Positions 13,000 through 57,290 of a DNA stretch of 64,000 nt are shown here, in pieces. Location of the stretch: the NCBI GenBank assembly GCA_040390065.1, contig JAZJZE010000002.1, positions 32,931-96,930 on the forward strand, read 5' to 3'. Below the pieces are notes generated by a model, which saw only the letters and a program-made list of their open reading frames with translations, made no database searches and was not told the DNA's origin. The translations under genes were made by a program, and so were the position numbers. The first letter of the stretch is position 1. Each line of letters begins with the position of its first letter. Origin of the DNA: a bacterium (GTDB lineage Archaea > Thermoplasmatota > E2 > JACPAO01 > JAHFTW01).

Positions 13000-13155
13000 G
13001 GCGGACCCCGGTGGCACGTTGGCCTAGTTGGCAACCCCCTGGCGCCTATTTGCGGTTTCTGGACCGAACACTGAGCCGCCAAGCCGCCTCCCGGCCCCGC
13101 CCATATTCGTTATCTAGGGGGTGGCTCTGGCGCGAAACATCCTGGTGACTGGACC

Positions 13156-21225: not shown

Positions 21226-21322
21226 GCGGCCCATCAAACGAAACAACCGACGCAACAGACGGCCCGCTGATTCGGTTGCCTCAGGTACATCGGTTGATGG
21301 ACCGGGCGATGCGATGAGGGGG

Positions 21323-24052: not shown

Positions 24053-25252
24053 CTACTGCACGAAGTCGATGCCGCCGGTCGAGGGCGGGGCTTGTCCCCG
24101 GCCGCTGCGGCTGCCCATGCTGGTCGGGCGGTCGAACTTGAAGCCCTCGGGCTTGGCCGGTCCGCCGCTCGGGGTGCGAGCCGCGGCGCCCTTGCCGTTG
24201 GCCGTCTGCACCGCGTGCAGTTGCACGGGGGCGTTGGCCTGCTGCAGGTTCGGGGCGACTTCGATGGTGCTGATGCCGGTCATGATGGCCATGACGCGGC
24301 AGCGGCCCTCGAACTGGGGCAGCACGCGGGCGCCCCAGATGACGTTGGCCTGGGAGTCGAGTTCGTAGGTGAGTCCTTCGGCGACTTCCTCGGCGTGCTT
24401 GAGGGTGAGGTCGGGGCCGCCGGTGATGTGGATGAGGGCGCCGGTCGCGCCGCGGTAGTCCACGTCCAGAAGCGGGTGGTTGAGTGCCTCGGAGACGACC
24501 GACGAGGGGCCGTCGGAGACCTTGGATTCGCCCCAGAGCATGACGGCGACGCCGCCTTCGCCCATGATGGCCTTCACGTCGGCGTAGTCCAGGTTGATGA
24601 GGGACGGCTGGGTGATGGTCTCGCTGATGCCCTTGACGGTCTCCGCGATGAGTTGGTCCATGACCGAGAAGGCCTGGTCGATCGGGAGGTTGGGGACGTA
24701 GTTCAGCAGGCGGTTGTTGTCGAGGACGATGACCGAGTCGGCGCGGCTGCGCAGCTTCTGCAGGCCTTCGTCGCCGCGGATGATGCGGGCGCGCTCGACG
24801 TTGAACGGCGTCGACACCATGCCGACGACGATGGCGCCCATCTTCTTCGCGACGTCCGCGACGACGGGGGCGGTGCCGGTGCCCGTGCCGCCGCCCATGC
24901 CGGCCGTGATGAAGACGAGGTCCGCGCCCTTCAGCATCTCTTCGAGCTTGCCGCGGGCCTGTTCGGCGCAGCGCTCTGCGACCTCAGGGTAGCCGCCGGC
25001 GCCAAGTCCGCGGGTGATGGTCTTGCCGACCAGGAGCTTCTTGTCCGCCTCGACGAGGTCAAGCGCTTGCTTGTCCGTGTTGATGGCGATGGTCTCGGCG
25101 CCCTTCACGCCCACCTTGTGCAGGCGGTTGATCGTGTTGCCGCCTGCGCCGCCGCAGCCGACAATCACGATCTTCGGTTCGCCGAAGTTCTCGTACTCTT
25201 TGAGTTCCTGCTCTTGGGCGTACCCAACAGCGACTCCAATCAGGCTTTGCAT
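24053..25252 (-). CDS. ftsZ: cell division GTPase FtsZ (probably FtsZ2-type given the CdrS-like gene immediately upstream)
   Basis: [41 protein letters not shown] tubulin signature, NVERARI, DNNRLL. Start taken at MQSLIGV (25252) rather than the most upstream start of the ORF. Confidence 0.9.
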
Positions 25253-25387
25253 GGTGTGTTCAGCTCCTCCACTTGTTGACGCCGGTATGGCCGGACCTTG
25301 CCGGCATAGGGAATGAGGGGCCGGCGTCGGCCCCCCATCCCCCGAGTGCATCCCATCCCAGCCTTGTGAGGCGAGGACCGTGAAACC

Positions 25388-25648
25388 CTACTCGAGGCCA
25401 AGCTTCTGCTTGGTGGCCTTCTGGCGCGCCAGCTCTTGCTGGAGTTCCAGGACGCCCCGGCTCGACTCCATGATCTTCATCGCCTCCGAGCCCTTGGTGA
25501 ACAGGAGCTCCTTGATGGCGTTGTAGACCAGGTCGGTCGTGTTGCGGTACATGCCGGCGTGGACCAGGGCTTCCATTTGCTGGATCTGGTTCACGGGCAG
25601 GCGCACCGTGACGCGGTCGGACGGGTTCTTGGCGTGTTTTGCGGCCAT
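25388..25648 (-). CDS. cdrS: ribbon-helix-helix (CopG-like) DNA-binding protein, CdrS-like, immediately upstream of ftsZ
   Basis: 86 aa from MAAKHAKNP. RHH-compatible RVTVRLPVNQIQQMEALVHAGMYRNTTDLVYNAIKELL. Position directly upstream of and co-oriented with ftsZ matches the conserved euryarchaeal cdrS-ftsZ2 arrangement (established knowledge). Confidence 0.6.
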   Translation of the reverse strand: MAAKHAKNPSDRVTVRLPVNQIQQMEALVHAGMYRNTTDLVYNAIKELLFTKGSEAMKIMESSRGVLELQQELARQKATKQKLGLE

Positions 25649-25674
25649 TGTTTGACCTCTTGGGGCGCCGCAGT

Positions 25675-25747
25675 TGTCAGACAACTGTGGCTGGCAAAGG
25701 TCCACCCGCAGACCCATTCGGGCCTGTTTGTGGTCATTTGTCTGACA
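25675..25747 (-). promoter_or_regulatory. two TGTC-N-GACA palindromes (25675-25683 within the 17-bp palindrome CAGTTGTCAGACAACTG, and 25739-25747) upstream of cdrS; TTTAAATA-like A/T box at 25766-25773
   Basis: Read directly. The palindromes lie 27 and 91 nt upstream of the cdrS start and are spaced 64 bp apart. Candidate operator sites for an RHH dimer. Confidence 0.4.
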
Positions 25748-26039
25748 GTCCCATTGTCCCTGTGGTATTTAATGACTTGGGAAAAAACCGGGCGGCGAAA
25801 AGGCGCCGCCTCCTGTTGGATGCCCAACCATGGCCTTGCCTTGAACCTTCGTTTCCGATGGAGTCCATCGGAAATGGTGGTCCGCCGAGCTGCCGAATGG
25901 AGGCGTCTGAGGGAAGGCCGGCCCGCCAAGAACTGACCCATTGTGGGAGGGGGGAGCTGCAATCACGGAGCGGGCCGGACTTCCGACGACGAGGCCAAAG
26001 CCCGCCAAGCCGAAACCTTTGCCGCCAGGTCAGTGAAAC

Positions 26040-26891
26040 CTAGGGGCCCGCCGGCGGCAAGGGGACGCCAGGCGCCGCTGCACCCGACCGCAGCCACGCA
26101 CCGAACTCCGTCCAGTGCCGCAGGTAGTCGTCGCGCCACTTCTGCCGGTAGATGACCGCCGCCGGGTGCAGGCTGACGAAGATGGGCACGCCATCAGGGC
26201 CGGCCAGGAAGGTCCCGGCCAGGGCGGAGAAGGCCTCCGGGACGTGGCCGATCAAGCCCGACAGGCCGTGCCGGCCGAGCGCCACGATGACACGCGGGCG
26301 CAGCGCGGCGACTTGCGCCAGGAGGTACGGCCGGCACGCGCCTTTCTCGTCGTCCTTCGGATCGCGGTTGGCCGGCGGGCGGCACTTGACGATGCTCGTG
26401 ACGAAGCAGGCGCTTCGGTCGATGCCGGCAGCTGCGAGGGCGAGGTCCAGTTTCTTCCCGGCGGCGCCGCAGAAAGGCCGCCCCGTCTCGTCCTCGTTGC
26501 GGCCCGGCGCCTCGCCGACCAGCATGACGCCGCTTGCCCCCGTGCCTTCTCCCGGGACCGCATTCGTCCGCGTCTCGCAGAGCCGGCAAAGGCGGCAGGC
26601 CCGCACCGCGTCGGCCAGGCGCAGGAGGGCTGCGTCGTCGGGCACGCATCTCGCACAAGCGGACCCACCGATAACTTGGATGGACCCGTTGGACGACCGA
26701 TTCCGTCGGCAAAAGCCGGCCAAGGCACGCCCAGGTGGAAGGCGGGGCGACGGCGTAGCCGGGTCATGCAAAACCTTAGGCGACGGGCCGGCGGTCGGGA
26801 CGCGTGCGTCGCGCCGCCGGCTTGGCTCTCCTTCTGATCCTTCTGCCCGCGTGCTTGGGACCTGCCACCACCACCTCGACCAGCACGTCAC
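26040..26891 (-). CDS. udg: uracil-DNA glycosylase, family 4 (Fe-S type); true start probably internal (GTG/TTG) downstream of 26804
   Basis: Motifs CRLCRLCETRTNAVPGEGTGASGVMLVGEAPGRNEDETGRPFCGAAG, HPAAVIY. The N-terminal about 80 aa of the ORF overlap the divergent metallophosphatase gene and are likely not translated. Confidence 0.7.
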   Translation of the reverse strand: MTCWSRWWWQVPSTRAEGSEGEPSRRRDARVPTAGPSPKVLHDPATPSPRLPPGRALAGFCRRNRSSNGSIQVIGGSACARCVPDDAALLRLADAVRACRLCRLCETRTNAVPGEGTGASGVMLVGEAPGRNEDETGRPFCGAAGKKLDLALAAAGIDRSACFVTSIVKCRPPANRDPKDDEKGACRPYLLAQVAALRPRVIVALGRHGLSGLIGHVPEAFSALAGTFLAGPDGVPIFVSLHPAAVIYRQKWRDDYLRHWTEFGAWLRSGAAAPGVPLPPAGP

Positions 26892-27835
26892 CCGTTCTGT
26901 CGAACCCGATCGTTCGCTTCGTCGCTCTGGGTGACGCCGGCACGGGCGAAGCCGACCAGTTCACCGTCGCGGCCGCCATCGCCAAGGTCTGCGCCGAGCG
27001 CGGCTGCGACTTCGCCGTCGGCCTCGGCGACAACATCTACGACGCGGGCGCCAGCTCGGACCGCGACCCGCAGTTCGACAGCAAGTTCGAGGTCCCCTAC
27101 GCGAACTTGGCGATGCCGTTCTGGATGGTCCTCGGCAACCACGACAACTCGCAAGACCCGGCGGCAAGCGGCGCAACGGGGGGCCTTGGTCTGTGGTACT
27201 CGGCCGGCAACAACGAGGTCGCGTACGGCAAGCGCACGGACACGTCGGGCAAGTGGCACATGCCGGCGCGATACTACACCTTCACGCAGGGACCCGCCGC
27301 CTTCGTCGCCCTCGACACGAACACGCTCTTGTTCGACGATGTTCCGGTGCCGCCTGGCCAGGCCGCAGAGGTGCAGGCGCAGACGAAGTGGGTCGACGGC
27401 GCCATCGCGGCTCTGCCGGCCAACACCACTTGGCGCATCGCCATCGGCCACCACGGCTACCTCTCGAACGGCCCGCACGGCAACGCGGGGGCCTACGACG
27501 GGCGCGCCGGCGTGCCGGGCCAATCGGGCGACTACACGAAGCAGTTCTTCGAAGCGCACGTCTGCGACAAGGTGGACCTGTACCTCTTCGGCCACGACCA
27601 CGACTTGCAATGGCTCGACGCAGTGGCGCCTTGCGGAAGGACGCAGTTCATCGGCTCCGGAGCGGGCGGCGCCGGCACGTACGAGTTGGTGGGCACGAAC
27701 GCCGGCCGTTTCCAGGCCAGCGAGCACGGCTTCTGGTACTTCGAAGTCGACGCCAAGAATGTCTACGCGACCGCCTACGATGCCGACGGCAAGATCCTGT
27801 ACACGGGCGTCATCTCGAAGCACCTTGCCGCGTGA
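26804..27835 (+). CDS. secreted calcineurin-like metallophosphoesterase (purple-acid-phosphatase/PhoD-like)
   Basis: Signal/lipobox LLLILLPACLG. Metallophosphatase motifs GDAGTG, GDNIY, GNHDN, GHHG, GHDHDLQ. Confidence 0.7.
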   Translation: MRRAAGLALLLILLPACLGPATTTSTSTSPVLSNPIVRFVALGDAGTGEADQFTVAAAIAKVCAERGCDFAVGLGDNIYDAGASSDRDPQFDSKFEVPYANLAMPFWMVLGNHDNSQDPAASGATGGLGLWYSAGNNEVAYGKRTDTSGKWHMPARYYTFTQGPAAFVALDTNTLLFDDVPVPPGQAAEVQAQTKWVDGAIAALPANTTWRIAIGHHGYLSNGPHGNAGAYDGRAGVPGQSGDYTKQFFEAHVCDKVDLYLFGHDHDLQWLDAVAPCGRTQFIGSGAGGAGTYELVGTNAGRFQASEHGFWYFEVDAKNVYATAYDADGKILYTGVISKHLAA

Positions 27836-27999
27836 CGCCTCGAGCCATCCCGCCGCCACCCGTTCCGCTTAAGTGGGACACTCCCGTCGTCGCAATCCCG
27901 CCACCGCACTGCGATGGCGGCCCGGCGCAAGGCGGGGACTAGGTGAGGGAGTAGGCGCCCCTCTTCGTGCAAGTCTACATGGCGCGACCGAACCCCTGT

Positions 28000-28345
28000 C
28001 GTGGCGCCCGGGGTCCGCTGCAAGCCCTCGTCTTACGGTGAAACCTCGTCCCCCGAGGTCGGCGGTGGCAGGAAACGTCCCGGAAGGGACGCCGAATGCC
28101 TTCGCTGCGGGGACCGGGTCAGGCCCGGAAGGGAGCAGCCTTACCGCAAACGACCGACGTTTGGGGGGGCGCGGGGTGGAGAACAACGAGGGATCCAAAC
28201 TTGCACGGGTTCCGTGGCCGTCGCGGCAGGATCGTCCCCGCCCGCTAAAGGGCCTGCCGGGGAATGTAAACCCCTCACGGAGTATCGAACATGTTCATGC
28301 TGGGCGAATACGCGCCGGTGGACAATGCCGCCCCGCGCCGCAACG
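28000..28345 (+). ncRNA. ffs: signal recognition particle RNA (7S/SRP RNA), archaeal type with helix 6 and helix 8
   Basis: Helix-8 signature GGUCAGGCCCGGAAGGGAGCAGCC at 28116-28140 (compare universal GUCAGGUCCGGAAGGAAGCAGC). Perfect GGAA-tetraloop hairpin ACGUCCCGGAAGGGACG at 28075-28091 in the helix-6 position. Alu-like 5-prime part with GGUGAAAC and UCCCCCGAGG loops. 5-prime GUGGCGC..GGGG can pair with 3-prime CCCCGCGCCGC at 28331-28341. Lies in a 557-bp gene-free gap. Ends are approximate. Confidence 0.6.
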
Positions 28346-28392
28346 CTTAACATAGCACGCAGGCTAAAGTCAATTCCTCCCTGGCGATTTCC

Positions 28393-28629
28393 ATGGTCCT
28401 CCTCCGCTGTGCAAAGTGTGGTTCCGATGCCGGTTTCCTCATCGAGACGTCCGACCGCAAGACGCTCGAAGTGAAGGGCAAGCTCCCCATGGAGCGCATC
28501 CTCAAGACCGTCCTCGTCACCTGCGTCTACTGCAACAACCGCTGGGACCACGTCCCGGTCATCGTGACCGACCCCTCCATCGACGAGAAGGTCAGCGCCC
28601 CTCGCAAAGACCGCGAACTGCTCAACTGA
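28393..28629 (+). CDS. small zinc-ribbon protein (CxxC...CxxC)
   Basis: 78 aa. CAKCG ... CVYCNNRW. Good GC3. Follows a TTAACATA-like A/T element about 40 nt upstream. Confidence 0.45.
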   Translation: MVLLRCAKCGSDAGFLIETSDRKTLEVKGKLPMERILKTVLVTCVYCNNRWDHVPVIVTDPSIDEKVSAPRKDRELLN

Positions 28630-28631
28630 GT

Positions 28632-28760
28632 GGGTATTCCGCAGAATCCCTCCGGTCGGTCATCCATCTGGAGACTCGCAGATTGACTTCACCCGCTTAG
28701 TCAGTCGGCGGAATCTGCTCCCAGTCCGTGCCATTGCAAGACGTGCAAGCGTTCACCAGG
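28632..28760. repeat. left copy of about 125-bp inverted repeat (35-bp core GGGTATTCCGCAGAATCCCTCCGGTCGGTCATCCA perfect); partner at 34205-34328
   Basis: Reverse complement of 28632-28666 is identical to 34294-34328. Flanking about 90 bp match imperfectly (GGAGCAGATTCCGCCGA, TCAATCTGCG). Confidence 0.8.
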
Positions 28761-28817
28761 ACGATGCCGGGGATGTCGGCGAAATCCGCGGATGAGTCGT
28801 CGCGACGAGCGCCCACC

Positions 28818-29897
28818 TCAACGGGCAAGCGCCAGTTCGTCCCCGAACTCCTTCAGCATCTTGATGCCGTGCACGTCGCGGCGCCGTAGCGGCACGAGCA
28901 CCTGCGGCACCTTCGGCAGGCGGCGTTCGAGTTCGGCGATGTGTTCAAGGTTCATGGCGCGGCGCACGCGCCCGAATTCCGTTGCGGCGACGAGGGCCTC
29001 GACGAATTCCGGCTTGGTCTGCGTCGCCGCCGAAGCGGACTTGGCAAAGGCTGCCCTTGCCTCGGCGTCGCCGGCCAAATGCGTGAAGGCTCCATCGAAC
29101 CCGGCGACGGGATCCGGTTGCACCTTGTTGACGACGACGAGGCGGACGTGCATGCCGAGTCCGGTGACCGCCGCGTGCAGTTCGCAGGTCTCCTCGACCG
29201 GCAGTTTCTCGGGCAGGCACACGAGGACGAGGGCCGAGTGCTTGGGATCCGTCAGGAAGGCGCGGATGCGCTTTGCCTCCTCGGCGATGTCCCCGAACAC
29301 CTTCTCGAAGTCGACGTCGGGTGGTGGCGCCCGCTTGGCCTCGCGCTTCACGACGTTTTGCATGCGGCGTGCGGCTCCCGACAGTTTCTGCCAGACCGCG
29401 TAGCCCTTCACGGCCCACTTGAGCAGGCTTCGATCGGAGACGAGTTCCTCGATGGCCGCCGGTGCGGACAGGAACGACAGCGCGTGGCCCGTCGGCGCCG
29501 TGTCGACGACGATGACGTCGTAGGCGTTCTCGCGGCGCAGGTCGTTGAGCTTGCCGATGGCCATGAGTTCGTTGAGGCCAGGCAGGGCGCGCGTCGCCTG
29601 CTTGAACAACGGGTGGTCGGTCACCTGGACGCCCGGGAGTTCGCGCGCGAAGTGCTCTCGTACCACGGATTCGGGGTCGAGCATCAGCGCAGTGAGGTTG
29701 GGCTGCACCGGCGTGGCCACGAAACCGACCGGGACGCCCAGCGAGTCCTGTAGCCGCTTGGCGGGGTCGACCGTGACGAGCATGGTCTTGCGGCCGTCGC
29801 GGGCAAACCGCAGGGCCAGGGCCGCAGAACACGTGGTCTTGCCCACGCCCCCCTTGCCAGCCACGATGACGAGGTTGCGGCCGTCCAGCTCCTTCAC
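28818..29897 (-). CDS. arsA: ArsA/GET3-family P-loop ATPase
   Basis: GKGGVGKTT P-loop, DTAPTGHALSFL signature. 359 aa. Confidence 0.85.
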   Translation of the reverse strand: MKELDGRNLVIVAGKGGVGKTTCSAALALRFARDGRKTMLVTVDPAKRLQDSLGVPVGFVATPVQPNLTALMLDPESVVREHFARELPGVQVTDHPLFKQATRALPGLNELMAIGKLNDLRRENAYDVIVVDTAPTGHALSFLSAPAAIEELVSDRSLLKWAVKGYAVWQKLSGAARRMQNVVKREAKRAPPPDVDFEKVFGDIAEEAKRIRAFLTDPKHSALVLVCLPEKLPVEETCELHAAVTGLGMHVRLVVVNKVQPDPVAGFDGAFTHLAGDAEARAAFAKSASAATQTKPEFVEALVAATEFGRVRRAMNLEHIAELERRLPKVPQVLVPLRRRDVHGIKMLKEFGDELALAR

Positions 29898-29939
29898 GGC
29901 GCCGCGATGGGCACCGACCGGATAGCAATGACGGCGACG

Positions 29940-31817
29940 TCAGGCCCGCCGACGCATGACGGCGACGACGACTCCGGCTCCGGCGAGAAGACCGACGCCC
30001 GATGCCAGCAGGATGCCGGCAAGGCTGCCGGTCGCCGCCTGGGCGGCCGGGCTGCCCGCAACAGTCTTGTCGAGCGGGCGGGCGCCTTCGCTTGGCGCCG
30101 CGCCGTCGCGGTACGTGAAGATGCTGCAGGCGTCGCCGGCGGCGTCGAGGTCCGAGTTCTCCTGCAGCGGGTTGCGGATTTGCGGGCAGTTGTCCGTCGC
30201 GTCGGGCACGAGGTCCCCGTCCCGATCGTCGTCGCACGCGTCGCCCATGGCGTCCCCGTCGAGGTTCTCCTGGTCTGCGTTGGAAACGGCCGCACAGTCG
30301 TCCGCGGCGTTCACGATGCCGTCGTTGTCGGCGTCCGCATCGCACGCGTCGCCCAGCAAGTCGTCGTCGGCGTCCGTCTGTGATGGGTTGGCATCCAGCG
30401 GGCAGTTGTCGACACGGTCGATCCAGCCGTCGCCGTCGGAGTCGGCGCCGGCCACTTGGTCGTCCACGCCGTCATGCGGCGGACGCGGCGCTTGGCCATT
30501 GTCCTGGGAGATGGTTCTCGGGATGCACATGGTTCCCTCCGTCGCGACCACTTGCGACGTGTGCGTCGAGGTCATTCCGTTCTCGACCGTGACGGTCTCC
30601 GTGACTGTGTATTGGCCCGGCTGCGCGTACTGGTGCGTCGGGCTCGGGTCCGTGCTCGTGGCACCGTCGCCGAAGTCCCACGCCCAGCCCGTGATGTTGT
30701 ACGTGCCGCCTGCGGACTGGTCCGCAAAGGAGACCGGATGCGGGCCACACGTCCCCGAGGAACTCGTCGCCTTGAAGCGAGCCGCCGGCGGGATGGGGGG
30801 CGGCGGGGGCGGCGGGACCCCGAGTTGCGAGAAGCGCGTGTTGTGCGCGGCGTAGACCGATTCATGGGCCGGGATGCTGAAACTCCAGCTCAACCCCGCG
30901 CCGGAGTCGAGGTTGGTCGAACACGTGCACGTGTCGGGGAAGGGCAGGTGCAGGCCGATCTGGCGCCAGACGGTGCTGTAGAAGTCCTCCATGTAGTTCG
31001 AGCCGGCCGTGAGCGGCACCCATTGTTCGATGCGGCCGTTGGGCGTATTGTCGACGTTGACGCTGCAGCCGATTGCGCCCTTGGGTTGGCCTTTGAAGCC
31101 GTTGCTTGCATCGCTTACCTGGAGGAAGCAGTCGCCGGCGCGGTACAGGATGATGGTCCGGGCGCTGTCCGTCGGGTTGTCGACCGTCACGTTCGTGGTG
31201 TAGAAGTCGTTGCCCGAGACGTACGTGTCGACCTCGGTGACGACCATGCCCGTGCTGCCCACCGCGACAACCGTCGTGGCCGAATTGGTGACCGGCGCAG
31301 TCCCCGAGGACGGGCCGCCGAGGCCGCCGAGGCTGTCGGAGGTCTGCGACTGCGAGATGGGAGTAAACGCGCGGTAGCCACCGATGGACCACGTGGCCGA
31401 CGAGTGACTTGCCTCGTTCGGGGCGTACAGCGTCGTCCCATCCCAGAGGAACGTGCCGCAATCGCCGGGCTTGACGGTCGGCGAGTACATCTCGAACTGG
31501 TTGTCGCCCTGGCGCGCAATCTGGCAGCCGAGTTCGTTGCCGATCCAGACGTCGATCAGCGGCCCGGCGCCGGGGAGCGTCGGCAGTTGATTGGAGTTGA
31601 TCATCTGCGGGCCTTGGTAGCCGATGTCGACGCAGGGCACCGAGCAGCATGGGTTCATGCAACTCGTCACGTTGGCCTGGGCGGGGGGCGTCCCGTTGAA
31701 CGAGGCGGTCAACGCGGCGAGGCAGACGACGGCGAGGAGGGCGCGCGTGAAGCGTTGTGCGTCCCAGCTCGTCGGAGCGTCCGCCGCCTCATCCACCCAA
31801 CCAACCCAATCCCGCAC
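29940..31817 (-). CDS. secreted surface protein: N-terminal domain plus PKD domain plus TSP3 repeats plus C-terminal TM anchor with basic tail
   Basis: Signal (RALLAVVCLAALTASFNGTPPAQA). PKD (WDFGDGATSTDPSPTHQYAQPGQYTVTETV). TSP3 repeats (DSDGDGWIDRVDNCPLDANPSQTDADDDLLGDACDADADNDGIVNAADDCAAVSNADQENLDGDAMGDACDDDRDGDLVPDATDNCPQIRNPLQENSDLDAAGDAC). C-terminal TM plus MRRRA. Track start is GTG. A TATA-like CTTATAC lies about 27 nt upstream, so the transcript may be leaderless. Confidence 0.7.
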   Translation of the reverse strand: MRDWVGWVDEAADAPTSWDAQRFTRALLAVVCLAALTASFNGTPPAQANVTSCMNPCCSVPCVDIGYQGPQMINSNQLPTLPGAGPLIDVWIGNELGCQIARQGDNQFEMYSPTVKPGDCGTFLWDGTTLYAPNEASHSSATWSIGGYRAFTPISQSQTSDSLGGLGGPSSGTAPVTNSATTVVAVGSTGMVVTEVDTYVSGNDFYTTNVTVDNPTDSARTIILYRAGDCFLQVSDASNGFKGQPKGAIGCSVNVDNTPNGRIEQWVPLTAGSNYMEDFYSTVWRQIGLHLPFPDTCTCSTNLDSGAGLSWSFSIPAHESVYAAHNTRFSQLGVPPPPPPPIPPAARFKATSSSGTCGPHPVSFADQSAGGTYNITGWAWDFGDGATSTDPSPTHQYAQPGQYTVTETVTVENGMTSTHTSQVVATEGTMCIPRTISQDNGQAPRPPHDGVDDQVAGADSDGDGWIDRVDNCPLDANPSQTDADDDLLGDACDADADNDGIVNAADDCAAVSNADQENLDGDAMGDACDDDRDGDLVPDATDNCPQIRNPLQENSDLDAAGDACSIFTYRDGAAPSEGARPLDKTVAGSPAAQAATGSLAGILLASGVGLLAGAGVVVAVMRRRA

Positions 31818-31849
31818 ACTGCGCCCACGGGTTTGCGGGTATAAGAGTC

Positions 31850-32599
31850 ATGGCCCGCGATGCCCACCTGTCGAGCGGCGAGACCGGAGAGTTCGCGCGA
31901 CGGGCCAAGGCGCACTTCCATCAACGCGGACCGGCTCACAAGGGTGTGCCGCGTTCCCAACACGCCGTCTGGGAGGTGATTGCGGCATCGTTCGACCGGA
32001 GCCGGACGCGCACCTGGCCGCATGTCCACGCATTCGTGGCAGGCCTGCCGGCCGAATCTCGTGTCCTGGACCTCATGGCCGGCAACGGCCGCCACACCAC
32101 CGTCATCACGGCCGCCGGCCACCAAGCGACTTGGCTCGACTGGAGCCGGCCCGCCGCGCGCATCGCAGCGGCAAGGAACCGCCCAGCCCACATCGTCGTC
32201 GGCGACGCGGCGGCGCTCCCCTTTGCCGACCATTCCTTCGATGCCGCCATCGTCGTCGCCGGCCTGCACTCGCTGCCGTCTGCCGCGGGGCGCCTCCAGG
32301 CCTTGCAGGAACTCGGCCGCGTCCTTGCCCCGCAAGGCACGGCGCAAGTGACCGTCTGGAGCCGGGACGCGCCGCGGTTTTCCACGCTGGGCGCTCCCGG
32401 CGATGAACTCGACGTCGAGCTTCCTTGGCGTAGCGACGGTCACGACGAGACCCGTTCGTACCACTTGTACACCGACGGTGCGCTGCGCCGCGATTGCACG
32501 GCCGCGGGACTCGTCGTGCGCAGCATGGCGGACGTCACGATCCTGGGACGTGGCGGCCCCGACAACCTCGTCGCCGTCGTTGCGCCTGCCCCGTCGTGA
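31850..32599 (+). CDS. class I SAM-dependent methyltransferase
   Basis: Motif I VLDLMAGNGRHT. Post-I acidic residue. IVVGDAAALPF, AIVVAGLHSL. Start taken at the first ATG (31850), with the upstream extension assumed to be a high-GC artefact. Confidence 0.65.
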   Translation: MARDAHLSSGETGEFARRAKAHFHQRGPAHKGVPRSQHAVWEVIAASFDRSRTRTWPHVHAFVAGLPAESRVLDLMAGNGRHTTVITAAGHQATWLDWSRPAARIAAARNRPAHIVVGDAAALPFADHSFDAAIVVAGLHSLPSAAGRLQALQELGRVLAPQGTAQVTVWSRDAPRFSTLGAPGDELDVELPWRSDGHDETRSYHLYTDGALRRDCTAAGLVVRSMADVTILGRGGPDNLVAVVAPAPS

Positions 32600-32656
32600 G
32601 ACCCCCTCAGGCCGTCGCCGACAAGAGTTATCCGGCGCCCGCCGTGTCGCCGCGGC

Positions 32657-34141
32657 ATGCGCGCAGTTTCGGCCGTCGCCCTGCTTGCCCTCATGACCCT
32701 GGCCGGATGCACGAGCACCGAGGCGCCGCCGTCGCAGCCGCCCACGGCGCCCATGCCGACCGAGCATGGCGGGATGCTACGCACCTTCGCCGGCAACGAC
32801 ACCGTCGTGACACCTGCAGAATTCGCCGGCCTCGGCCTTGCGGTCCGGTCGACGCACCACCGCGGCGGCGAACCCAACATCGGCATCACCTCGGACGGCG
32901 CCATGTACGTCACGGCCGGCCCCGGCGTCGAGCGCTCCAACGACCTGGGGCTCACCTGGACCGAGGTGTTCAACCTCACGACGTTCTGGGGACCTGCGTA
33001 CAACCCCGAGCCGACGGGAACCGTATACGGCCTGGAGCGCTCGAGCGACGACATGCTATGGGTCGACACCGACACGGACCGGATCTTTGCCGACTTCATG
33101 ACCGGGCTGTACTGCAGCAAGCTGTACTACTCGGACGACGGCGGCGCGTCCTGGATTCCCAGCCCAATCGACTGCGGCGTGCCCGTCAACGACCACCAGA
33201 AGGTCGCCACAGGACATTATGGGCCCGACGTGCCCGTGCCCCTCAACCCGGTGTACCCGAATCTGGTCTACTACTGCTACAACAAGCTCGCGGCCTCCAG
33301 TTGCGCGGTCAGCCACGATGGCGGCCTCACCTTCAACTACGACCGCGCCGCGACCATCGCGACGACCCCGCAGCCCGATGATCCCCTGACGGTCCAGGGT
33401 CCATGCGGCGGCATCAACGGCCACCCCGCAGCCGCGCCGGACGGCACGTTGTACCTCCCGCTGAACCTGGGCTGCCCCGGCCCCGTCGTCGCCGTGTCCA
33501 CCAACAACGGCCTGTCCTACGTCAACCGCGTCGGCCCCACCGAGCACGGCGCCGAGGAAATCGACCCCGATGTCACGGTAACGCCGGACGGCACGGCCTA
33601 CATGCAATACCGTGGCTCCGACCACCTGCAGTATCTCGTGCGCAGCAAGGACCGCTTCCAGAGCTTCCAGGGACCTTGGCGAGTCTCGCCGCCCGACCTG
33701 CGCTCCACCGTCTTTGCCGGCATCACCTCGGGCGACGACGGGCGCATCGCCATGGCTTACCTTGGCACGCGCGACACGGACAAGGAGCCCTCCCTGGCAC
33801 CCAACGAGACGCGCTGGCACCTGTTCGAGACGTTGAGCTTCGACGCCGGCAACGCGACGCCGACCTTCACCACCGTGCAAGCCACGATGGACGACAGCCC
33901 CGTGCAGATCGGATGCGTTTGGCTCAATGGCGGCGGCAATCCGTGCCGCAACATGCTGGACTTCATCGACATGACGCACACTCCGGACGGGCGCCCCGTC
34001 GTGGTCTTCAGCGACGGCTGCACGGCGGGCTGCGACGGCAACCTCAACGCCACCAACAAGGACAGCCGTGGCCGGACCATCACGGTCGCGGCACTGCAGT
34101 CGGGGCCCAGCCTGCTGGCGTCGAAGGGCCGCTTCGACTGA
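32657..34141 (+). CDS. secreted BNR/Asp-box repeat (sialidase-like beta-propeller) lipoprotein
   Basis: Lipobox LALMTLAGC. BNR motifs YYSDDGGASW, SHDGGLTF, STNNGLSY. Multiple NxS/T sequons. Confidence 0.6.
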   Translation: MRAVSAVALLALMTLAGCTSTEAPPSQPPTAPMPTEHGGMLRTFAGNDTVVTPAEFAGLGLAVRSTHHRGGEPNIGITSDGAMYVTAGPGVERSNDLGLTWTEVFNLTTFWGPAYNPEPTGTVYGLERSSDDMLWVDTDTDRIFADFMTGLYCSKLYYSDDGGASWIPSPIDCGVPVNDHQKVATGHYGPDVPVPLNPVYPNLVYYCYNKLAASSCAVSHDGGLTFNYDRAATIATTPQPDDPLTVQGPCGGINGHPAAAPDGTLYLPLNLGCPGPVVAVSTNNGLSYVNRVGPTEHGAEEIDPDVTVTPDGTAYMQYRGSDHLQYLVRSKDRFQSFQGPWRVSPPDLRSTVFAGITSGDDGRIAMAYLGTRDTDKEPSLAPNETRWHLFETLSFDAGNATPTFTTVQATMDDSPVQIGCVWLNGGGNPCRNMLDFIDMTHTPDGRPVVVFSDGCTAGCDGNLNATNKDSRGRTITVAALQSGPSLLASKGRFD

Positions 34142-34204
34142 CTGGCGGCGCCTCCCCGCGACCAATCCACAGATTCCACTGAGGGGACTGACAATCTTGT
34201 CGGT

Positions 34205-34328
34205 CCAACGCATCAAACGTTGCAAACGCGCGGACGGGGAGCAGATTCCGCCGATTGGGTCAGCGGCTGTGGTCAATCTGCGGGGCATCCGGGTGGATGA
34301 CCGACCGGAGGGATTCTGCGGAATACCC
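34205..34328. repeat. right copy of about 125-bp inverted repeat (partner 28632-28760)
   Basis: See left copy. Lies between the BNR gene 3-prime end and the prs start. Confidence 0.8.
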
Positions 34329-34366
34329 GCCCAAACCCATTTCACGCCGGGGGGCCTGGCCCCATC

Positions 34367-35257
34367 GTGCCCTTCGTGCTTGCTGGCTCTGGCTCCCGGG
34401 TTTTCGCCGAGAGCCTCGCCCGCGAACTTGGCACGCCGTTGGCGCGCGCCGAAACCAAGCGGTTCCCGGACGGCGAAGGCCATGTCCGCATCCTCGACCC
34501 CGCCAAAGGCCGCGATGTGGTCATCGTCCAGGCGACGGCGCCGGACACCAACCTCGTCGAACTGCTGCTGTGGCAGGACGCGGCGCGCGAAGCCGGGGCC
34601 TCCAGCATCACGACGGTCATCCCCTACCTCGGGTACGCCCGCCAGGACCGCGTCTTCCTTCCCGGGGAGGCGGTCTCGAGCCGGGCTGCGGCGCGGGCCA
34701 TCGCGGGCAGCAGCGACCGCATCATCACCATCGACCCGCACAAGGAAGAATCCATGGCCTTCTTCGGCGGCAAGGCTGCCTCCGTTTCGGCCGTGCCGCA
34801 GCTTGCCGCCGTCTTGGCCTCTTGGGGCGTCGACACGGTGCTGGCCCCCGACAAGGGGGCTCGGGCCCGAGCCGAGTCCGCGGCGCACATCATGCATGCC
34901 CGCGTCGACCACCTCGAGAAGACCCGGCTGTCGGCGACGGAGGTCGTCATGCAGGCCAAAGACCTCGACGTGCGCGGTGCCCGCGTCGCCATCGTCGACG
35001 ACCTAATTGCATCGGGCGCCACCATGCTCACGGCCGCCCGGCAACTCAAGCAGGCGGGGGCCAAGGCGGTCTACGCCGCGTGCACGCACGGGCTGTTCAC
35101 CGGCGGCTCTCCGGCCAACCTCCTGTCGGATGGCATCGATCGCCTCCTCGTCACGGACACGGTGCCGGTCGCTTCGCCGCGGCCGACCGGCCTGGACATC
35201 GTGAGCGCAGCGCCGGCCGTCGCCCGCCTGCTGAAGGTCGCGCCTACGCCCGCGTAA
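34367..35257 (+). CDS. prs: ribose-phosphate pyrophosphokinase (PRPP synthetase)
   Basis: FSGSGSRVFAESLARELG, DGEGHVRI, VIVQAT, PYLGYARQDR, VAIVDDLIASGATM PRPP-binding loop. Confidence 0.85.
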   Translation: MPFVLAGSGSRVFAESLARELGTPLARAETKRFPDGEGHVRILDPAKGRDVVIVQATAPDTNLVELLLWQDAAREAGASSITTVIPYLGYARQDRVFLPGEAVSSRAAARAIAGSSDRIITIDPHKEESMAFFGGKAASVSAVPQLAAVLASWGVDTVLAPDKGARARAESAAHIMHARVDHLEKTRLSATEVVMQAKDLDVRGARVAIVDDLIASGATMLTAARQLKQAGAKAVYAACTHGLFTGGSPANLLSDGIDRLLVTDTVPVASPRPTGLDIVSAAPAVARLLKVAPTPA

Positions 35258-36628: not shown

Positions 36629-36701
36629 GGGGACTTAGGCTAACCTGGTAGACTGGCGGCCTCCAGAGCCGCTGATATGCGTTCAAATCGCATAGTCCCC
36701 A
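36629..36701 (+). tRNA. tRNA-Trp (anticodon CCA), intronless, no encoded CCA
   Basis: Folded by hand. Acceptor GGGGACU/AGUCCCC (7/7). U8. D-loop AACCUGGUA with G18G19. Anticodon stem GCGGC/GCCGC (5/5), loop CUCCAGA (U33, CCA). T-arm AUGCG/CGCAU with loop UUCAAAU. Discriminator A. D-stem is weak (one WC, two GU, one mismatch). Confidence 0.7.
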
Positions 36702-36706
36702 TTTCT

Positions 36707-37273
36707 CTAGCGCGGTCGTGGCACGGACTGAAACGTGTCGTCCCTCACGGCCGCCACATCCTGGCCTTCCGCGTCGGCGCGGGGCAAGGAACGCGGTCTT
36801 GCTGGGCGCCGCATCGTCCCTTCCGCATGACCCACCGCCACCGCGGGCACCTCGGCTGTGCGGCGCCGAACGGCGACGAGCGCCAGCGCGACCGACGTCG
36901 CCGTGACGAAGGCAACGATTGGGGCGGGCCGGAACATGCCGGGCACCAACGCAAGCGCAAGGGCGCAGAGCGCGGCGACCGCCGGGCCAAGCCCGAGGGC
37001 GACGACCACGTGGACCAGACGTTCGCGCCGGCTCGACTGCGGCAGTGACGCTTGCAACAGAAGGTAGCCGGGGGCAACGAGGGCCACGGCGCCGGCCGCC
37101 ATGCGCAGCAAGGAGCCGGGGGGCAGTGCGAATGCGGCAAGGGCACCGGCCAGGCAGACTCCGGCCGCAGCCACCACGTCCGCGTTGTGCGGCGCGGGGG
37201 CCCGGCCCCTTGGCGCGTCAGGCAATGGATCGTCGAGAGGCGCCGCAGCCCGCATGGGAAAACCTGCCCCCAT
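36707..37273 (-). CDS. hypothetical membrane protein (low confidence; may be non-coding)
   Basis: Only candidate ORF in an otherwise 680-bp gap. Divergent from the glycan operon. Hydrophobic stretches present but composition is Ala/Arg/Pro-rich and GC3 only moderate. Confidence 0.25.
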   Translation of the reverse strand: MGAGFPMRAAAPLDDPLPDAPRGRAPAPHNADVVAAAGVCLAGALAAFALPPGSLLRMAAGAVALVAPGYLLLQASLPQSSRRERLVHVVVALGLGPAVAALCALALALVPGMFRPAPIVAFVTATSVALALVAVRRRTAEVPAVAVGHAEGTMRRPARPRSLPRADAEGQDVAAVRDDTFQSVPRPR

Positions 37274-37387
37274 CGGGGGAAGATGCTTGCGCCAATCTTG
37301 TTCCGTTTGCCGCGATTGCGCGCTTGTCCCACAAACGACATGCCGCAGGGGCGTCAGACCGGTTTTGCCCCAAGGGGCGATTGCGCC

Positions 37388-39103
37388 ATGGCCGGACGAC
37401 GCTCGATTGGGCTATCCCTTCTGTGCGGGTTGATGGCCGTGGGCGCGGTGGCGCTCGGCCTATCGCTGCGGCTACGCGACCCGTTGTCGTCTCCCGTGAT
37501 GGCCGCCGAGGACCCGTTTACGCACATGGCCTTGGTGCGCAATGACCTCGACCGCGGCTCGTTTGCCCCCCTCAACGCGGGCGAAGGCCTGTATCCGCCC
37601 GGCCTGCACGCGATGGTCGCGGTCGCCGCGTCGTTCCTCGGCACGGACCTGTACACGCTTATGGTGCTGGCGCCAGCCGTCCTAGGAGCCATCGGCGTGG
37701 CCGGCGTCGCGGTCCTGTTGTGGCGCCACGAAGGCCCAGTCGCAGCGGTGGCCGGTGCGGCGGCGTGCGCCGTTGCGCCCGAGATCATCTTCCGCTCCGG
37801 CATGATGAGCCCGACCGCCATCGACCTTGCCCTGCTGCCGTGGTTCCTCCTGGCGCTTCTCGAGGTCGTGCGCGGGCGGTTCGGCTGGCTGCTCCCCGCC
37901 ACCACCCTGGCCGTGTTCACCTTGTTCGCGCATCCGTGGCTGCTCACGGTCCTAGCCATCACGGGCGTGGCCTTCGCCGTGTTCGTTGCGACGGCACCGT
38001 GGCCTCAGGGTCGCGCACCGCTTTCCAGCCGCGGTCTTGCCGCCGCCTGCTGCATCGTCGGCGTCCCCGTGGCCCTCATGCTTTGGGGTTGCGCGGGCAC
38101 CTGCGGGGCGGGCTTTCGCGACATCTTCCCCGGCGGCGACCAGTTGCGCTTCGCGGCACCGGCGGTTGCAGCCATCACCCTCGCCGTCGCAGCGGTCCTT
38201 TGGCTGGCGGCCCGCCGGCTCGATCCCCTGCTCGCTGCCCGGCGGCCGCGGCCGACGTGGGTCCGACTCATTGCTTGCGTTGGGCTTGCGGCCGCGCTGG
38301 TCGCAATCGTCGTGCCCGCCGTCCAAGACGGCATGCCGGAATTCGTCAACCTGCCACGCATGATTGGCTGGCCCATCCTCATCCTGGCGGGAGCAGCCCT
38401 CGTGGCCTTGCCCTTTGCCGCGACACCAGTTCGCACCGCGGGCGCCGCACTGGCGGCTGCGACCCTCCCGTTCGTCCTGTACAATCCCTTTCACAGTCCA
38501 TTCTGGCCACATCGCACCGCCGTGTACCTCGCCGTGGCCGCCGCGATCCTGGCTGGCGCGGCGGTCGGCCAGGCATCCAAGGCCGCCGGGGCAGCTGTCC
38601 AGCATTGGCTGCGTCGACCGCGCCGCGCGTCGAGGCTGGCCGTGGCGCCCCTTGCGCTTGCCGCGGTCGTGCTTGTCGGCGTAGCCGGCACGGCCGACGT
38701 CGTCGCCGCCACGCCCGATCCCTATGCGTGGTATCGGCTGTACAAACCCTGCGAATTCGCCGCCCTGCAGGACATCGCAACACGCCTGGCCACGGACCGG
38801 CGTACCATTGCCGTGACCGGAGATTGGCAAGCCAAACTTGTCCTTGCAGCACTGGCGCCAAACGCGTCGCGTATCTGGTTTTCCCCGTCCTTCTTCACGT
38901 CGCCTGCCCAGCGGGATGGCCTCGTTGCCACGATGCGCCATGCCGGGACCCCGCTCGTTGCCGTGGACGACCCGCTCTTGAAGATGGGGACACCCAAGGC
39001 GGACATGCATGGCTTTGCGCCGCCGGCGTGGATGGTCCTGGGGACTTGGTGCCCCGCTCCTTCACGGCCCGCCAGCGTGACCCTGTACGGGATGACTCAA
39101 TGA
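37388..39103 (+). CDS. polytopic membrane protein with C-terminal extracytoplasmic domain; candidate GT-C-fold lipid-linked-sugar transferase (ArnT/PMT/Gtr-like role, by context)
   Basis: Start at MAGRRSIGLSLLCGLMAVGAVALG (37388). Upstream part of the track ORF is Arg/Gly-rich artefact. About 11-13 hydrophobic helices over about 400 aa. First loop carries acidic EDPFTHMALVRNDLDRG. C-terminal about 150-aa soluble domain. Stop overlaps the next start (ATGA at 39100-39103). Confidence 0.55.
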   Translation: MAGRRSIGLSLLCGLMAVGAVALGLSLRLRDPLSSPVMAAEDPFTHMALVRNDLDRGSFAPLNAGEGLYPPGLHAMVAVAASFLGTDLYTLMVLAPAVLGAIGVAGVAVLLWRHEGPVAAVAGAAACAVAPEIIFRSGMMSPTAIDLALLPWFLLALLEVVRGRFGWLLPATTLAVFTLFAHPWLLTVLAITGVAFAVFVATAPWPQGRAPLSSRGLAAACCIVGVPVALMLWGCAGTCGAGFRDIFPGGDQLRFAAPAVAAITLAVAAVLWLAARRLDPLLAARRPRPTWVRLIACVGLAAALVAIVVPAVQDGMPEFVNLPRMIGWPILILAGAALVALPFAATPVRTAGAALAAATLPFVLYNPFHSPFWPHRTAVYLAVAAAILAGAAVGQASKAAGAAVQHWLRRPRRASRLAVAPLALAAVVLVGVAGTADVVAATPDPYAWYRLYKPCEFAALQDIATRLATDRRTIAVTGDWQAKLVLAALAPNASRIWFSPSFFTSPAQRDGLVATMRHAGTPLVAVDDPLLKMGTPKADMHGFAPPAWMVLGTWCPAPSRPASVTLYGMTQ

Positions 39104-39879
39104 CACCAGCACGCCCGCCTGCCTCCCACGTCACTCTCGTGGTCCCGGCCCGCAACGAGGAGGCCGCCATCCTCGACACGCTGCGAAGCCTCCCCCTCGC
39201 AACGCTACGAGCCATGGGGTTCTCCTGTGACGTCGTCGTCCTCGACGGCCACAGCCACGACCGGACCGCCGCAATCGCGGCAGCCTGGGGCGCCACCGTG
39301 GTGCCCGACCGCGAACGCGGGAAAGGGGCCGCCCTTCGCCAAGCTCGTGGCCAACTCCAGGGAGACCTCATCGTCATGCTCGACGCCGACGGCACGTACG
39401 CCGCGGACGCCGTTCCCCGCATCGTGGCGCGCCTTGCCTGGGGCTCCGCCGACGTCGTCATGGGCCGGCGCGTTCCACAGCCGGGCTCCATGAGCGCGAC
39501 GCACCGAGCTGGGAACCGACTGCTCTCCCTTGCGGCCACCGTCCTGTACGGCCGCCGCGTGCACGACGTCTGCACGGGACTGTGGGGTCTGCGCGCCCCA
39601 GTGCTTCGCCAGCTTCCGCTGCGCAGCACCGGCTTCGGCCTCGAGGCCGAACTCTTTGGCCTGTGCGTGCGCACGGGCTGCACCATCGCAGAGGTGCGCG
39701 TCGACTACCTGCCCCGGCGCGGTGTTGCAAAACTGACCCTCGGCCGCGACGGCATGCGCATCGCCCGACGGCTCGTCCGGACGCGCCTTGCACGCCTCCC
39801 GAGGCCAGATGCTGCGGCGCCCCAAGCGGCGCTCGACGCCGCCCGGCCAGCCATCCGCGTCGGGCAGGAGGGACCGTGA
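39100..39879 (+). CDS. GT2 glycosyltransferase, polyprenyl/dolichyl-phosphate sugar synthase family (Dpm1/ArnC/GtrB-like)
   Basis: VTLVVPARNEE, VVVLDGHSHDRT, LIVMLDADGTY (DAD motif), GRRV..., VCTGLWGLR. 259 aa. Start overlaps previous stop. Stop overlaps next start (GTGA at 39876-39879). Confidence 0.75.
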   Translation: MTPARPPASHVTLVVPARNEEAAILDTLRSLPLATLRAMGFSCDVVVLDGHSHDRTAAIAAAWGATVVPDRERGKGAALRQARGQLQGDLIVMLDADGTYAADAVPRIVARLAWGSADVVMGRRVPQPGSMSATHRAGNRLLSLAATVLYGRRVHDVCTGLWGLRAPVLRQLPLRSTGFGLEAELFGLCVRTGCTIAEVRVDYLPRRGVAKLTLGRDGMRIARRLVRTRLARLPRPDAAAPQAALDAARPAIRVGQEGP

Positions 39880-43405: not shown

Positions 43406-43409
43406 TGCC

Positions 43410-45693: not shown

Positions 45694-45700
45694 CGAAGAC

Positions 45701-53452: not shown

Positions 53453-53700
53453 CCGGCCAGTCAACCGATGTAACAGATGCAACCGACGAAGGGCGCGATT
53501 TCTGTTGCTTCGGTTGCGTCGGTTGATGACGTAGGTGTCGGTTTCATCGGTTTCATGGCTTGCTGGAGCTGCCCCCGCCGGCCAACTGGTCAACCGATAC
53601 AACCGAAGCAACCGATGAGGGACCGCGGATCGGCAGTTTGGGTTGCGTCGGTTGATGACGTAGGTATCGGTTTCATCGATTTCATCTGTTGACCAGGGGA
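53453..53700. repeat. tandem duplication (2 x about 124 bp) of an imperfectly palindromic element rich in AACCGA/TCGGTT motifs
   Basis: A-arms at 53453-53492 and 53574-53620 (..GTCAACCGATGTAACAGATGCAACCGACGAAGG / ..GGTCAACCGATACAACCGAAGCAACCGATGAGG). B-arms at 53508-53556 and 53636-53690 (TTGCGTCGGTTGATGACGTAGGTRTCGGTTTCATCGRTTTCAT). A and B are largely reverse complements. ORFs called here only mirror the repeat. Confidence 0.7.
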
Positions 53701-56847: not shown

Positions 56848-56929
56848 CAGCGGCGGGCCACGACCCGCGCGCCACACATCCCGGTGACGAATCGGCCGTC
56901 GGCGAGCACGCCTGATTCGTGGCGCCACG

Positions 56930-57190: not shown

Positions 57191-57290
57191 TGATCATATT
57201 GGACTTTGGTGAGCGCCGCCCTTTCCCACCGAGCCCCGAGTCGAGAACCGGTCCCACGAGGACCCGGTCCCGCAACGATGCCGGACGAAC

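Follow-up and report, generated by a model that had tools for sequence, protein, structure and literature searches.

Gene neighbourhood and extent of the repeat

The stretch of DNA analysed here, referred to below as the window, comprises 64 kb (64,000 nucleotides, nt) of contig JAZJZE010000002.1 from assembly GCA_040390065.1, a metagenome-assembled genome (MAG), and has a GC content of 68%. It contains two divergent gene pairs, a TSP3/PKD gene followed by arsA on the minus strand and a methyltransferase gene followed by a BNR lipoprotein gene on the plus strand, and the spacers after the last gene of each pair hold two inverted copies of a non-coding repeat module, about 5.6 kb apart (Table 1). 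The outer neighbours are a signal recognition particle (SRP) RNA and a small zinc-ribbon-type gene on the left and prs on the right. The original prediction had read arsA, a TSP3 protein, a methyltransferase, a BNR lipoprotein, prs and an SRP RNA from the sequence, and Pfam, the lipobox and Rfam agreed with these assignments. Domains were called by Pfam scans of the window open reading frames (ORFs), with four large TSP3-repeat ORFs at 1 to 20 kb left out. The type of the SRP RNA identifies the window as archaeal. Judging by the gene arrangement, both gene pairs are probably driven from the internal divergent region at 31817-31950. Orthologous loci in relatives (designated L016 and L023 to L027) were retrieved through homologues of prs.

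Table 1. Positions of the repeat copies and of neighbouring features in the window
Feature	Position	Strand	Remarks
Left repeat copy	28630-28817 (188 nt)	-	Strand given in the sense of arsA operon transcription; entire spacer from the zinc-ribbon stop codon (TGA, 28627-28629) to the arsA stop codon (28818-28820)
Right repeat copy, inverted relative to the left	34142-34330 (189 nt)	+	Entire spacer from the BNR stop codon (34139-34141) to the conserved prs core promoter
Left perfect core	28632-28666 (35 nt)		GGGTATTCCGCAGAATCCCTCCGGTCGGTCATCCA; dyad ATTC-CGCA-GAAT at 28636-28647 within a 7-bp stem, GGG(T)ATTC/GAATCCC
Right perfect core	34294-34328		Reverse complement of the left core; dyad at 34313-34324
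Archaeal SRP RNA	27932-28241	+	Rfam RF01857, 141 bits; same arrangement in L026
Zinc-ribbon-type gene	28393-28629	+	78 amino acids (aa) with two CxxC pairs (CxxC...CxxC); downstream of the SRP RNA; no Pfam match; orthologue of 77 aa in L026/L027
arsA, ArsA/Get3-type ATPase	28818-29897	-	Pfam ArsA_ATPase, 1.1e-53; last gene of the minus-strand pair; ancestral neighbour
TSP3-repeat/PKD-domain secreted protein gene	29940-31817	-	Pfam TSP_3 and PKD
Class I S-adenosylmethionine-dependent methyltransferase gene	31757-32599	+	Pfam Methyltransf_11/25/23; tblastn match to L016; homology to relatives covers 31952-32590; ancestral neighbour
BNR/sialidase-like lipoprotein gene	32657-34141	+	Pfam BNR_2; N terminus MRAVSAVALLALMTLAGC, lipobox LAGC; last gene of the plus-strand pair
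Putative prs core promoter, TFB recognition element (BRE)/TATA-like	34331-34346	+	CCCAAACCCATTTCAC; some 27 nt before the GTG start codon (34367); immediately outside the repeat
prs, ribose-phosphate diphosphokinase	34367-35257	+	Pfam; outer neighbour of the right copy

The outermost part of each copy is a perfect inverted core. The left core, read on the plus strand, is the exact reverse complement of the right one, with zero mismatches, and this 35-mer occurred twice in the window compared with 0 times in 100 shuffles. Both this core and the location of the copies outside genes had been predicted, and both held, the arms being the zinc-ribbon/arsA and BNR/prs spacers. The two arms formed by far the strongest inverted repeat of the window, and the remaining candidates were coding TSP3-type repeats or weak matches. 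Beyond the core, imperfect similarity extended inward only, to about 28745 on the left and 34215 on the right; blastn aligned the arms at 85% identity over 109 nt, nhmmer recovered both copies with an E value of about 1e-40, and a local alignment delimited a main unit of about 119 nt (left copy, 28627-28745). The arms had originally been put at about 125 bp, with some 90 bp of imperfect extension beyond each core. The extension is real on the inward side, whereas the length has to be revised, with homology covering 188 and 189 nt in a global alignment.

This longer extent rests on the inner stretches between the stop codons and the obvious unit, which measured 72 nt (28746-28817) on the arsA side and 73 nt on the BNR side. 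A local alignment restricted to the inner 72 nt had given no significant result (44 of 500 shuffles), but a global alignment, set against dinucleotide shuffles and controls, reversed this outcome: the two stretches gave a z score of 4.8 (0 of 1,000 shuffles), and the first 36 nt past the stop codons were 61% identical (z of 4.0). Six control regions subjected to the same test scored from -0.9 to 2.0. No homology was detected in the last 72 nt of the arsA and BNR coding sequences (z of 0.0) or in the 72 nt past the outer ends (z of 0.8), so that the outer flanks are unrelated. Because the inner alignment was significant and the controls behaved as expected, the repeat takes up the whole of both spacers.

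Read in the sense of arsA and BNR transcription, identity between the copies rose from about 58% to about 80% and then to 100% across the last 35 nt, and it dropped abruptly 2 to 3 nt past the 7-bp dyad GGGATTC-TGCG-GAAT(A)CCC, with only two to five more matching positions outward of the perfect core. A perfect run of 35 nt was nonrandom when set against the divergence of the remaining module (P of 0.004 to 0.012). The near-palindrome predicted within the core, ATTCCGCAGAAT (ATTC-N4-GAAT), was indeed confined to the two cores within the 64 kb, and four of the five matches to GCAGAWTC in the window fell within the two modules. The outer ends coincided with functional boundaries: on the left the module stops at the zinc-ribbon stop codon, whose position is shared with the L026 orthologue, and on the right it reaches the start of the prs core promoter. 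The outermost 35 nt is under sequence constraint or was recently homogenised.

Synteny in relatives and search for further copies

The relatives retained the gene order of the locus. L026 and L027 carried the SRP RNA, the zinc-ribbon orthologue (plus strand), a 40-nt gap, arsA (minus), the methyltransferase gene (plus), a 43-nt gap, and prs (plus). The order in L024 and L025 was arsA (minus) followed by the methyltransferase gene, BNR and prs (all plus), with BNR at the position equivalent to that in the window, and in L016 it was arsA (minus), the methyltransferase gene and prs (both plus), with synteny continuing downstream to uvrB. Farther upstream, TtuA, FtsZ and an RHH gene were common to the window and L026. 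The repeat was not found in the locus of any relative, either by nhmmer or by a covariance model run on the window and relatives, and an analogous repeat pair around arsA and the methyltransferase gene of L016 was looked for and was absent. Since relatives without the repeat keep the same gene order and orientation, the bracketed segment is, on this comparison, ancestral core genome and not cargo, and its orientation in the window is likewise the ancestral one. The sole bracketed gene missing from all five of the relatives compared (L016, L024, L025, L026 and L027) was the TSP3/PKD gene, between arsA and the methyltransferase gene, and it alone is extra.

These comparisons bear directly on the proposal that the arms are the termini of a composite or non-autonomous transposon with arsA, TSP3/PKD, the methyltransferase gene and BNR as cargo. 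Inverted arms that are best conserved in their outermost 35 bp do resemble transposon ends. However, the interior genes and both flanks were syntenic in L016, L024, L025 and L026/L027, all without arms, the GC content of the segment equalled that of its flanks with no compositional shift, no target-site duplication (TSD) was seen outside the arms, and the scanned ORFs included no transposase. The composite transposon was thus refuted and retains hardly any credibility.

Several other features of the gene neighbourhood were recorded. The TSP3/PKD protein shares Asp-rich TSP3-type repeats with very large upstream surface-protein ORFs (1068-6512, 8003-10459, 10534-13017 and 14564-20107), which include a tandem paralogue pair with a 2,543-nt period and 76 to 87% identity; the shared repeats suggest a lineage-specific expansion of calcium-binding surface proteins. 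ArsA was 80% identical in amino acid sequence to its L016 orthologue, and its homology to relatives reached position 29930, upstream of the first canonical start codon at 29897, which hints at a non-canonical start. The SRP RNA, the small zinc-ribbon protein and the convergent ArsA/Get3-type ATPase form a conserved cluster (window 27932-29930 and L026 7455-9265) that juxtaposes components of two membrane-protein targeting routes. The prs protein matched at 100% a MAG protein labelled "[bacterium]" at NCBI, and the next homologues, at 73 to 78% identity, came from Thermoplasmatota MAGs, with a few labelled Halobacteriales; given the archaeal SRP RNA and closest relatives that are mostly Thermoplasmatota MAGs, the label looks wrong for the protein of the source contig. 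Farther downstream, about 9 kb at approximately 36700-45700, directly after a tRNA (36629-36701), was missing in L016, whose synteny resumes there. This block encodes DUF6541, two FG-GAP beta-propeller proteins and a GT4 glycosyltransferase and resembles a surface/glycan island beside a tRNA; no integrase was seen in it.

The spacers equivalent to those filled by the module were minimal in some relatives, with 40 nt on the left in L026/L027 and 42 to 43 nt on the right, promoter included, in L024/L026. A TATA-like box lay at an equal distance upstream of prs in L024 (GCTTATC), L026 (GCTTATG), L025 (GCTTAAG) and L023 (GCTATCA), and the prs promoter of L023 (CCCAAATCGCTATCACGCC) matched that of the window (CCCAAACCCATTTCACGCC). 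The spacer upstream of prs held a differing non-coding insert in each of L016, L023 and L025 and nothing in L024 and L026. In L016 it spanned 621 nt with ATCGGTT arrays, in L023 it spanned at least 259 nt (L023 1-259) with an array of CCTGGAAA/TTTCCAGG motifs, and in L025 it spanned 173 nt, including an 87-nt near-perfect hairpin (4321-4407); the 173-nt gap folded at -77.9 kcal/mol (z of -3.4), and one arm of its hairpin recurred at another locus of L024 (8140-8168). These inserts and dispersed small repeats in the clade make a small repeat, mobile or intergenic, more plausible from the outset.

Two further repeats of the window were noted. The first, a small intergenic family built on ATCGGTT/AACCGAT heptamers in both orientations (e.g., ATCGGTTTCATCGGTTGATG), was present as direct 97-nt copies at 53460-53556 and 53589-53685 (79 to 82% identity), between an RNase H/RVT_3 gene and uvrB, and as a partial inverted copy at 21232-21306. 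It also formed arrays at 1697-1726 and 9642-9670 of L016 and, being found twice in a relative of a different genus-level lineage, is more widely conserved than the module studied here. The second was an 87-nt direct repeat (56923-57009 and 57107-57193; 91% identity, 184-nt spacing), each copy of which, as judged by eye, appears to encode a 21-aa mini-ORF on the minus strand (MSPTMCQIIAPGLASPSAKKA); these may be tandem small-peptide genes.

The original prediction had proposed that many dispersed copies without paired orientation would mark the repeat as a generic miniature inverted-repeat transposable element (MITE), and searches for them were negative. No third copy was found in the window by blastn, by an nhmmer profile or by the covariance model. 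An 18-mer of the core gave 15 matches across 185,579 species genomes, a collection without the source MAG, all of them bacterial and extending over only 18 to 21 nt, as expected by chance, and a two-anchor pattern gave five matches in JGI metagenomes, all on contigs of 41 to 50% GC and covering the anchors only, which again is chance. Two scans of viral contigs and blastn searches of plasmids and phages gave no match to the repeat, and a six-frame peptide concatenate, which would have caught spurious ORFs over other copies, had no match among 5.8 billion proteins. Rfam 15 gave no match to the repeat, either at the gathering threshold in the window or at E values of up to 10 on 28300-29000. An exact-protein look-up of prs and BNR returned no strain variants on record. 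Apart from the two arms, no copy of this lineage-specific non-coding module was therefore detectable in the window, the loci of the relatives and the collections searched; the source MAG beyond the window was not covered.

Mobile-element, switch and regulatory signals

No significant terminal inverted repeats (TIRs) were found in the module, the best candidate matching at 11 to 12 of 16 positions and being internal (outer versus inner, P of about 0.12), and no TSD was consistent between the copies, which shared only chance 5-mers at differing offsets. Among the scanned ORFs there was no transposase, TnpA/TnpB, recombinase, integrase, invertase or Orc1/Cdc6. The module resembles classical MITEs, including gene-flanking pairs (PMC10969869), in being about 100 to 200 nt long, non-coding and intergenic, in having internal dyads and in occurring as two copies around a gene block. 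Unlike them, it has no significant TIRs, no TSD and no related transposon, it was not multicopy in our searches, and the genes that it brackets are ancestral by synteny. The suggestion of an intergenic element came closest of the three originally offered: a two-copy intergenic element was found, but the MITE hallmarks of TIRs and TSDs were not, nor were more than two copies in the sequences searched.

By the definitions of PMC3119063, the lack of TIRs and TSDs excludes a classical MITE and leaves as the nearest architecture the palindrome-associated transposable elements (PATEs), which are derived from the insertion sequence (IS) families IS200/IS605, and the small mobile repeats (SMRs) of Haloquadratum walsbyi, classes without TIRs or TSDs (PMC3119063). 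The likeness includes a short, non-coding, intergenic and lineage-specific sequence in an archaeal host, too short to encode a transposase, with a palindrome near its terminus and heterogeneous sequence beyond that near-terminal palindrome. The differences are that only two copies are detectable here, whereas PATEs and SMRs are multicopy, with totals of 109 to 194 per category and strain (PMC3119063), that the inner palindrome is weak and that the end palindromes are not significantly alike. IS200/IS605 elements insert 3' of a fixed short (tetranucleotide) target without duplication (PMC3201880); no other IS family is as common in archaea, and all 27 annotated IS families are represented in Thermoplasmatota (PMC13343696). 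In outline, with a dyad near either end and both copies starting just 3' of TGA, the module bears a loose resemblance to IS200/IS605 ends. The distances from hairpin to end in the module, 2 to 3 nt on the outer side and 23 to 24 nt on the inner side, only loosely recall the 10 and 19 nt of IS608 (PMC3201880), and inspection by eye gave no IS608-style guide/cleavage tetranucleotide pairing that was consistent between the copies.

A purely selfish or decaying mobile repeat of the MITE, PATE or SMR kind has to be weighed in this context. It would have no host function and would have inserted independently at two sites 5.6 kb apart in opposite orientation, with the core being a recent gene-conversion tract between the copies. 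Its absence from the orthologous spacers of relatives, the other small dispersed repeats of the clade and the lack of a thermodynamic or Rfam signal of structured RNA all agree with this explanation, and by our calculation two random points in 64 kb would be no more than 5.7 kb apart in about 17% of cases. However, no further copy turned up in the window, the relatives or the collections searched, a conversion tract at the very edge of the homology, with none beyond it, is mechanistically awkward, and the gradient from 58% to 100% identity looks more like graded constraint. We therefore regard a purely selfish repeat as unlikely, though it deserves more weight than any of the other alternatives.

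A second proposal of the original prediction was that the bracketed segment is invertible; the cores would then be where recombination takes place, whether homologous or through an unlinked site-specific recombinase. In invertons, shufflons and the Hin/Gin/Cin systems, the segment lies between inverted core sites of about 30 bp that are perfectly conserved. The perfect 35-bp cores, their inverted orientation and their sharp outer boundaries fit such sites, and short-read assemblies alone cannot fix the orientation. An independent assembly, which also supports the existence of the repeat, illustrated this: Logan contig L028 (run SRR26324623) was 100% identical to window 24885-28661 and terminated at 28661, the last still-unique 31-mer ahead of the shared core. 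The break at the core edge is explained by the assembly graph, presumably built with k of 31, which must branch at a repeat longer than k, and the contigs consequently carry no orientation information. In contrast to invertons, no recombinase is adjacent to the segment or present among the ORFs scanned across the 64 kb, the 5.6 kb contains housekeeping and surface-protein genes with promoters that are probably internal, and the only orientation observed is, by synteny, ancestral. The arms lie past stop codons, and as both gene pairs diverge from the internal region, an inversion would merely exchange their 3' neighbours and would have no obvious regulatory consequence. With no positive evidence in its favour, we consider the invertible segment very improbable. 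A broader version, in which the perfect outermost 35 bp, the sharp outer boundary and the inverted orientation would mark orientation-dependent sites for an unlinked protein (for instance a trans-acting recombinase inverting the block) or else the paired functional ends of a nascent composite element that could mobilise arsA, TSP3/PKD, the methyltransferase gene and BNR, appears equally remote.

The module gave few signs of a stable RNA fold. In the plus sense of the left copy, the unit had z scores of -2.0 (left) and -1.07 (right), and in the opposite sense the scores were -1.6 and -0.9. The core sub-hairpins scored about 0, with the 7-bp stem at about -8 kcal/mol. Consensus folds of the two copies contained one or two compensatory pairs, and the differences fell mostly in loops, in a structure that was derived from the same two sequences. 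Because the stability of the fold does not exceed that of shuffles, the conservation of the core appears to be one of sequence, which favours sequence-specific recognition.

A pair of small RNA genes, or of RNAs acting antisense in cis or trans, would nevertheless be read in this plus sense, in which the left module would be the 3' untranslated region (UTR) of the zinc-ribbon mRNA and complementary to the BNR 3' UTR on the right, so that the two RNAs could pair. In the consensus fold for that sense, the third hairpin has all seven of its differences in loops and there is one compensatory pair, AU to GC; the left unit reaches the z score of -2.0. The right copy does not share that score, two sequences served both to derive and to judge the structure, no common promoter-like sequence precedes the copies in that sense (their outer flanks being unrelated), and neither Rfam at E values of up to 10 nor the covariance model, which finds nothing else, supports an RNA family. 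We view both the RNA genes and the pairing of the UTRs as quite improbable. A C/D-box RNA was also considered and rejected, as candidate CUGA and GAUGA boxes were not conserved between the copies when compared by eye.

Conservation of sequence instead of fold is also what would be expected of a DNA operator, in which ATTC-N4-GAAT and the related GATTCYGC motifs would bind a transcription factor or architectural protein that regulates prs and perhaps the neighbourhood. The right core abuts the promoter, lying at about -39 to -73 of prs, just upstream of the BRE/TATA, and both the restriction of the dyad to the two cores and the clustering of GCAGAWTC in the modules agree with a binding site. 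Against this, the left copy abuts the 3' end of the zinc-ribbon gene, with no gene or promoter on its outer side, the window holds no other sites and hence no visible regulon, and prs is expressed from the same promoter in relatives that lack the module. An operator is therefore improbable, if somewhat less so than the RNA explanations. Two further candidates were rejected: a coding function, because of a 1-nt indel between the copies and stops in most frames, and an archaeal replication origin (origin recognition boxes), as 5.6 kb of genes lies between the arms, the scanned ORFs included no Orc1/Cdc6 and there is no AT-rich stretch. The skew of the window follows gene orientation.

A proposed double addition of the module at the ends of two operons

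Our preferred explanation, which we hold tentatively with a probability of roughly 0.45, is that a small lineage-specific module was added twice and acts as a protein-recognised 3'-end or boundary element that both divergent operons read in the same sense. The module would have entered two minimal spacers of a conserved core-genome neighbourhood in this lineage, each addition filling exactly the interval from a TGA stop codon to whichever functional element follows, namely the zinc-ribbon stop codon (left) or the prs BRE/TATA (right). The most likely source would be either a PATE/SMR-like, non-autonomous small repeat that lacks TIRs and TSDs and inserts as a single strand 3' of a short target in the IS200/IS605 style, or one of the two spacers, copied ectopically into the other. 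Since the copies are inverted and the operons divergent, transcription from the presumed internal promoters would read the module in the same sense in both. Any retained function would reside in the terminal 35 nt, recognised by a protein as sequence and not as a stable hairpin, and this part would separate each operon from its outer neighbour.

A role of this kind recalls the bacterial repetitive extragenic palindromic (REP) sequences, bacterial interspersed mosaic elements (BIMEs) and enterobacterial repetitive intergenic consensus (ERIC) sequences, which are palindrome-containing intergenic units after operon-final genes or between convergent genes (PMC3333891, PMC8266576, PMC10969869). REP/BIME and ERIC have been proposed to shape 3' ends and mRNA stability, and BIMEs contain paired inverted units (PMC3333891, PMC8266576, PMC10969869). 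They differ from the module in being bacterial and high-copy, with 20- to 40-nt units in close pairs and an associated REP-associated tyrosine transposase (RAYT/TnpA-REP), whereas the module is archaeal, its two copies lie 5.6 kb from each other, and it has no stable hairpin other than the 7-bp stem.

A number of observations weigh against a twice-added 3'-end element. The folds of the whole gaps were no better than those of shuffles (z of -1.6 and +0.35), and no terminator-type hairpin with a T-run was found in or beside either copy, a terminator having been among the possibilities of the original prediction. Only 5 of 36 gene ends were followed by a run of at least four T residues within 200 nt, so that intrinsic terminators of this kind may not be in use in this organism. 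Recent gene conversion, and not constraint, could account for the perfect core, and any inverted repeat that brackets divergent operons will automatically be read by both in the same sense. On the side of mobility, a mobile family is normally multicopy, yet only two copies are detectable, with the source MAG beyond the window not covered, and the scanned ORFs contain neither TnpA, TnpB nor another transposase. The 7-bp dyad of the outer end finishes 2 to 3 nt from the boundary, while the dyad of the inner end (ATCCGCGGAT/AATCCACAGATT) has only 3 to 4 bp and lies 23 to 24 nt from its boundary, and the likeness between the two internal palindromes was not significant. PATE insertion occurs 3' of a fixed tetra- or pentanucleotide and always in one orientation to it, and both copies do start directly after TGA (GTTGA and ACTGA) in the same relative orientation; with two instances that coincide with the stop codons of arsA and BNR, this apparent target is not independent evidence.

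The locus indicates that compact uncultured Thermoplasmatota genomes also acquire lineage-specific small intergenic modules, and that one permissive spacer, upstream of prs, carries a differing insert in each related lineage. For users of the MAG, it matters that the 35-bp inverted core breaks assemblies built with k of 31; because it branches the assembly graph, the orientation of the 5.6-kb block is unresolvable from short reads. If the core is indeed a protein-recognised 3'-end or boundary signal, it would provide a handle on how transcript ends are defined in a high-GC archaeon in which oligo-T signals look scarce.

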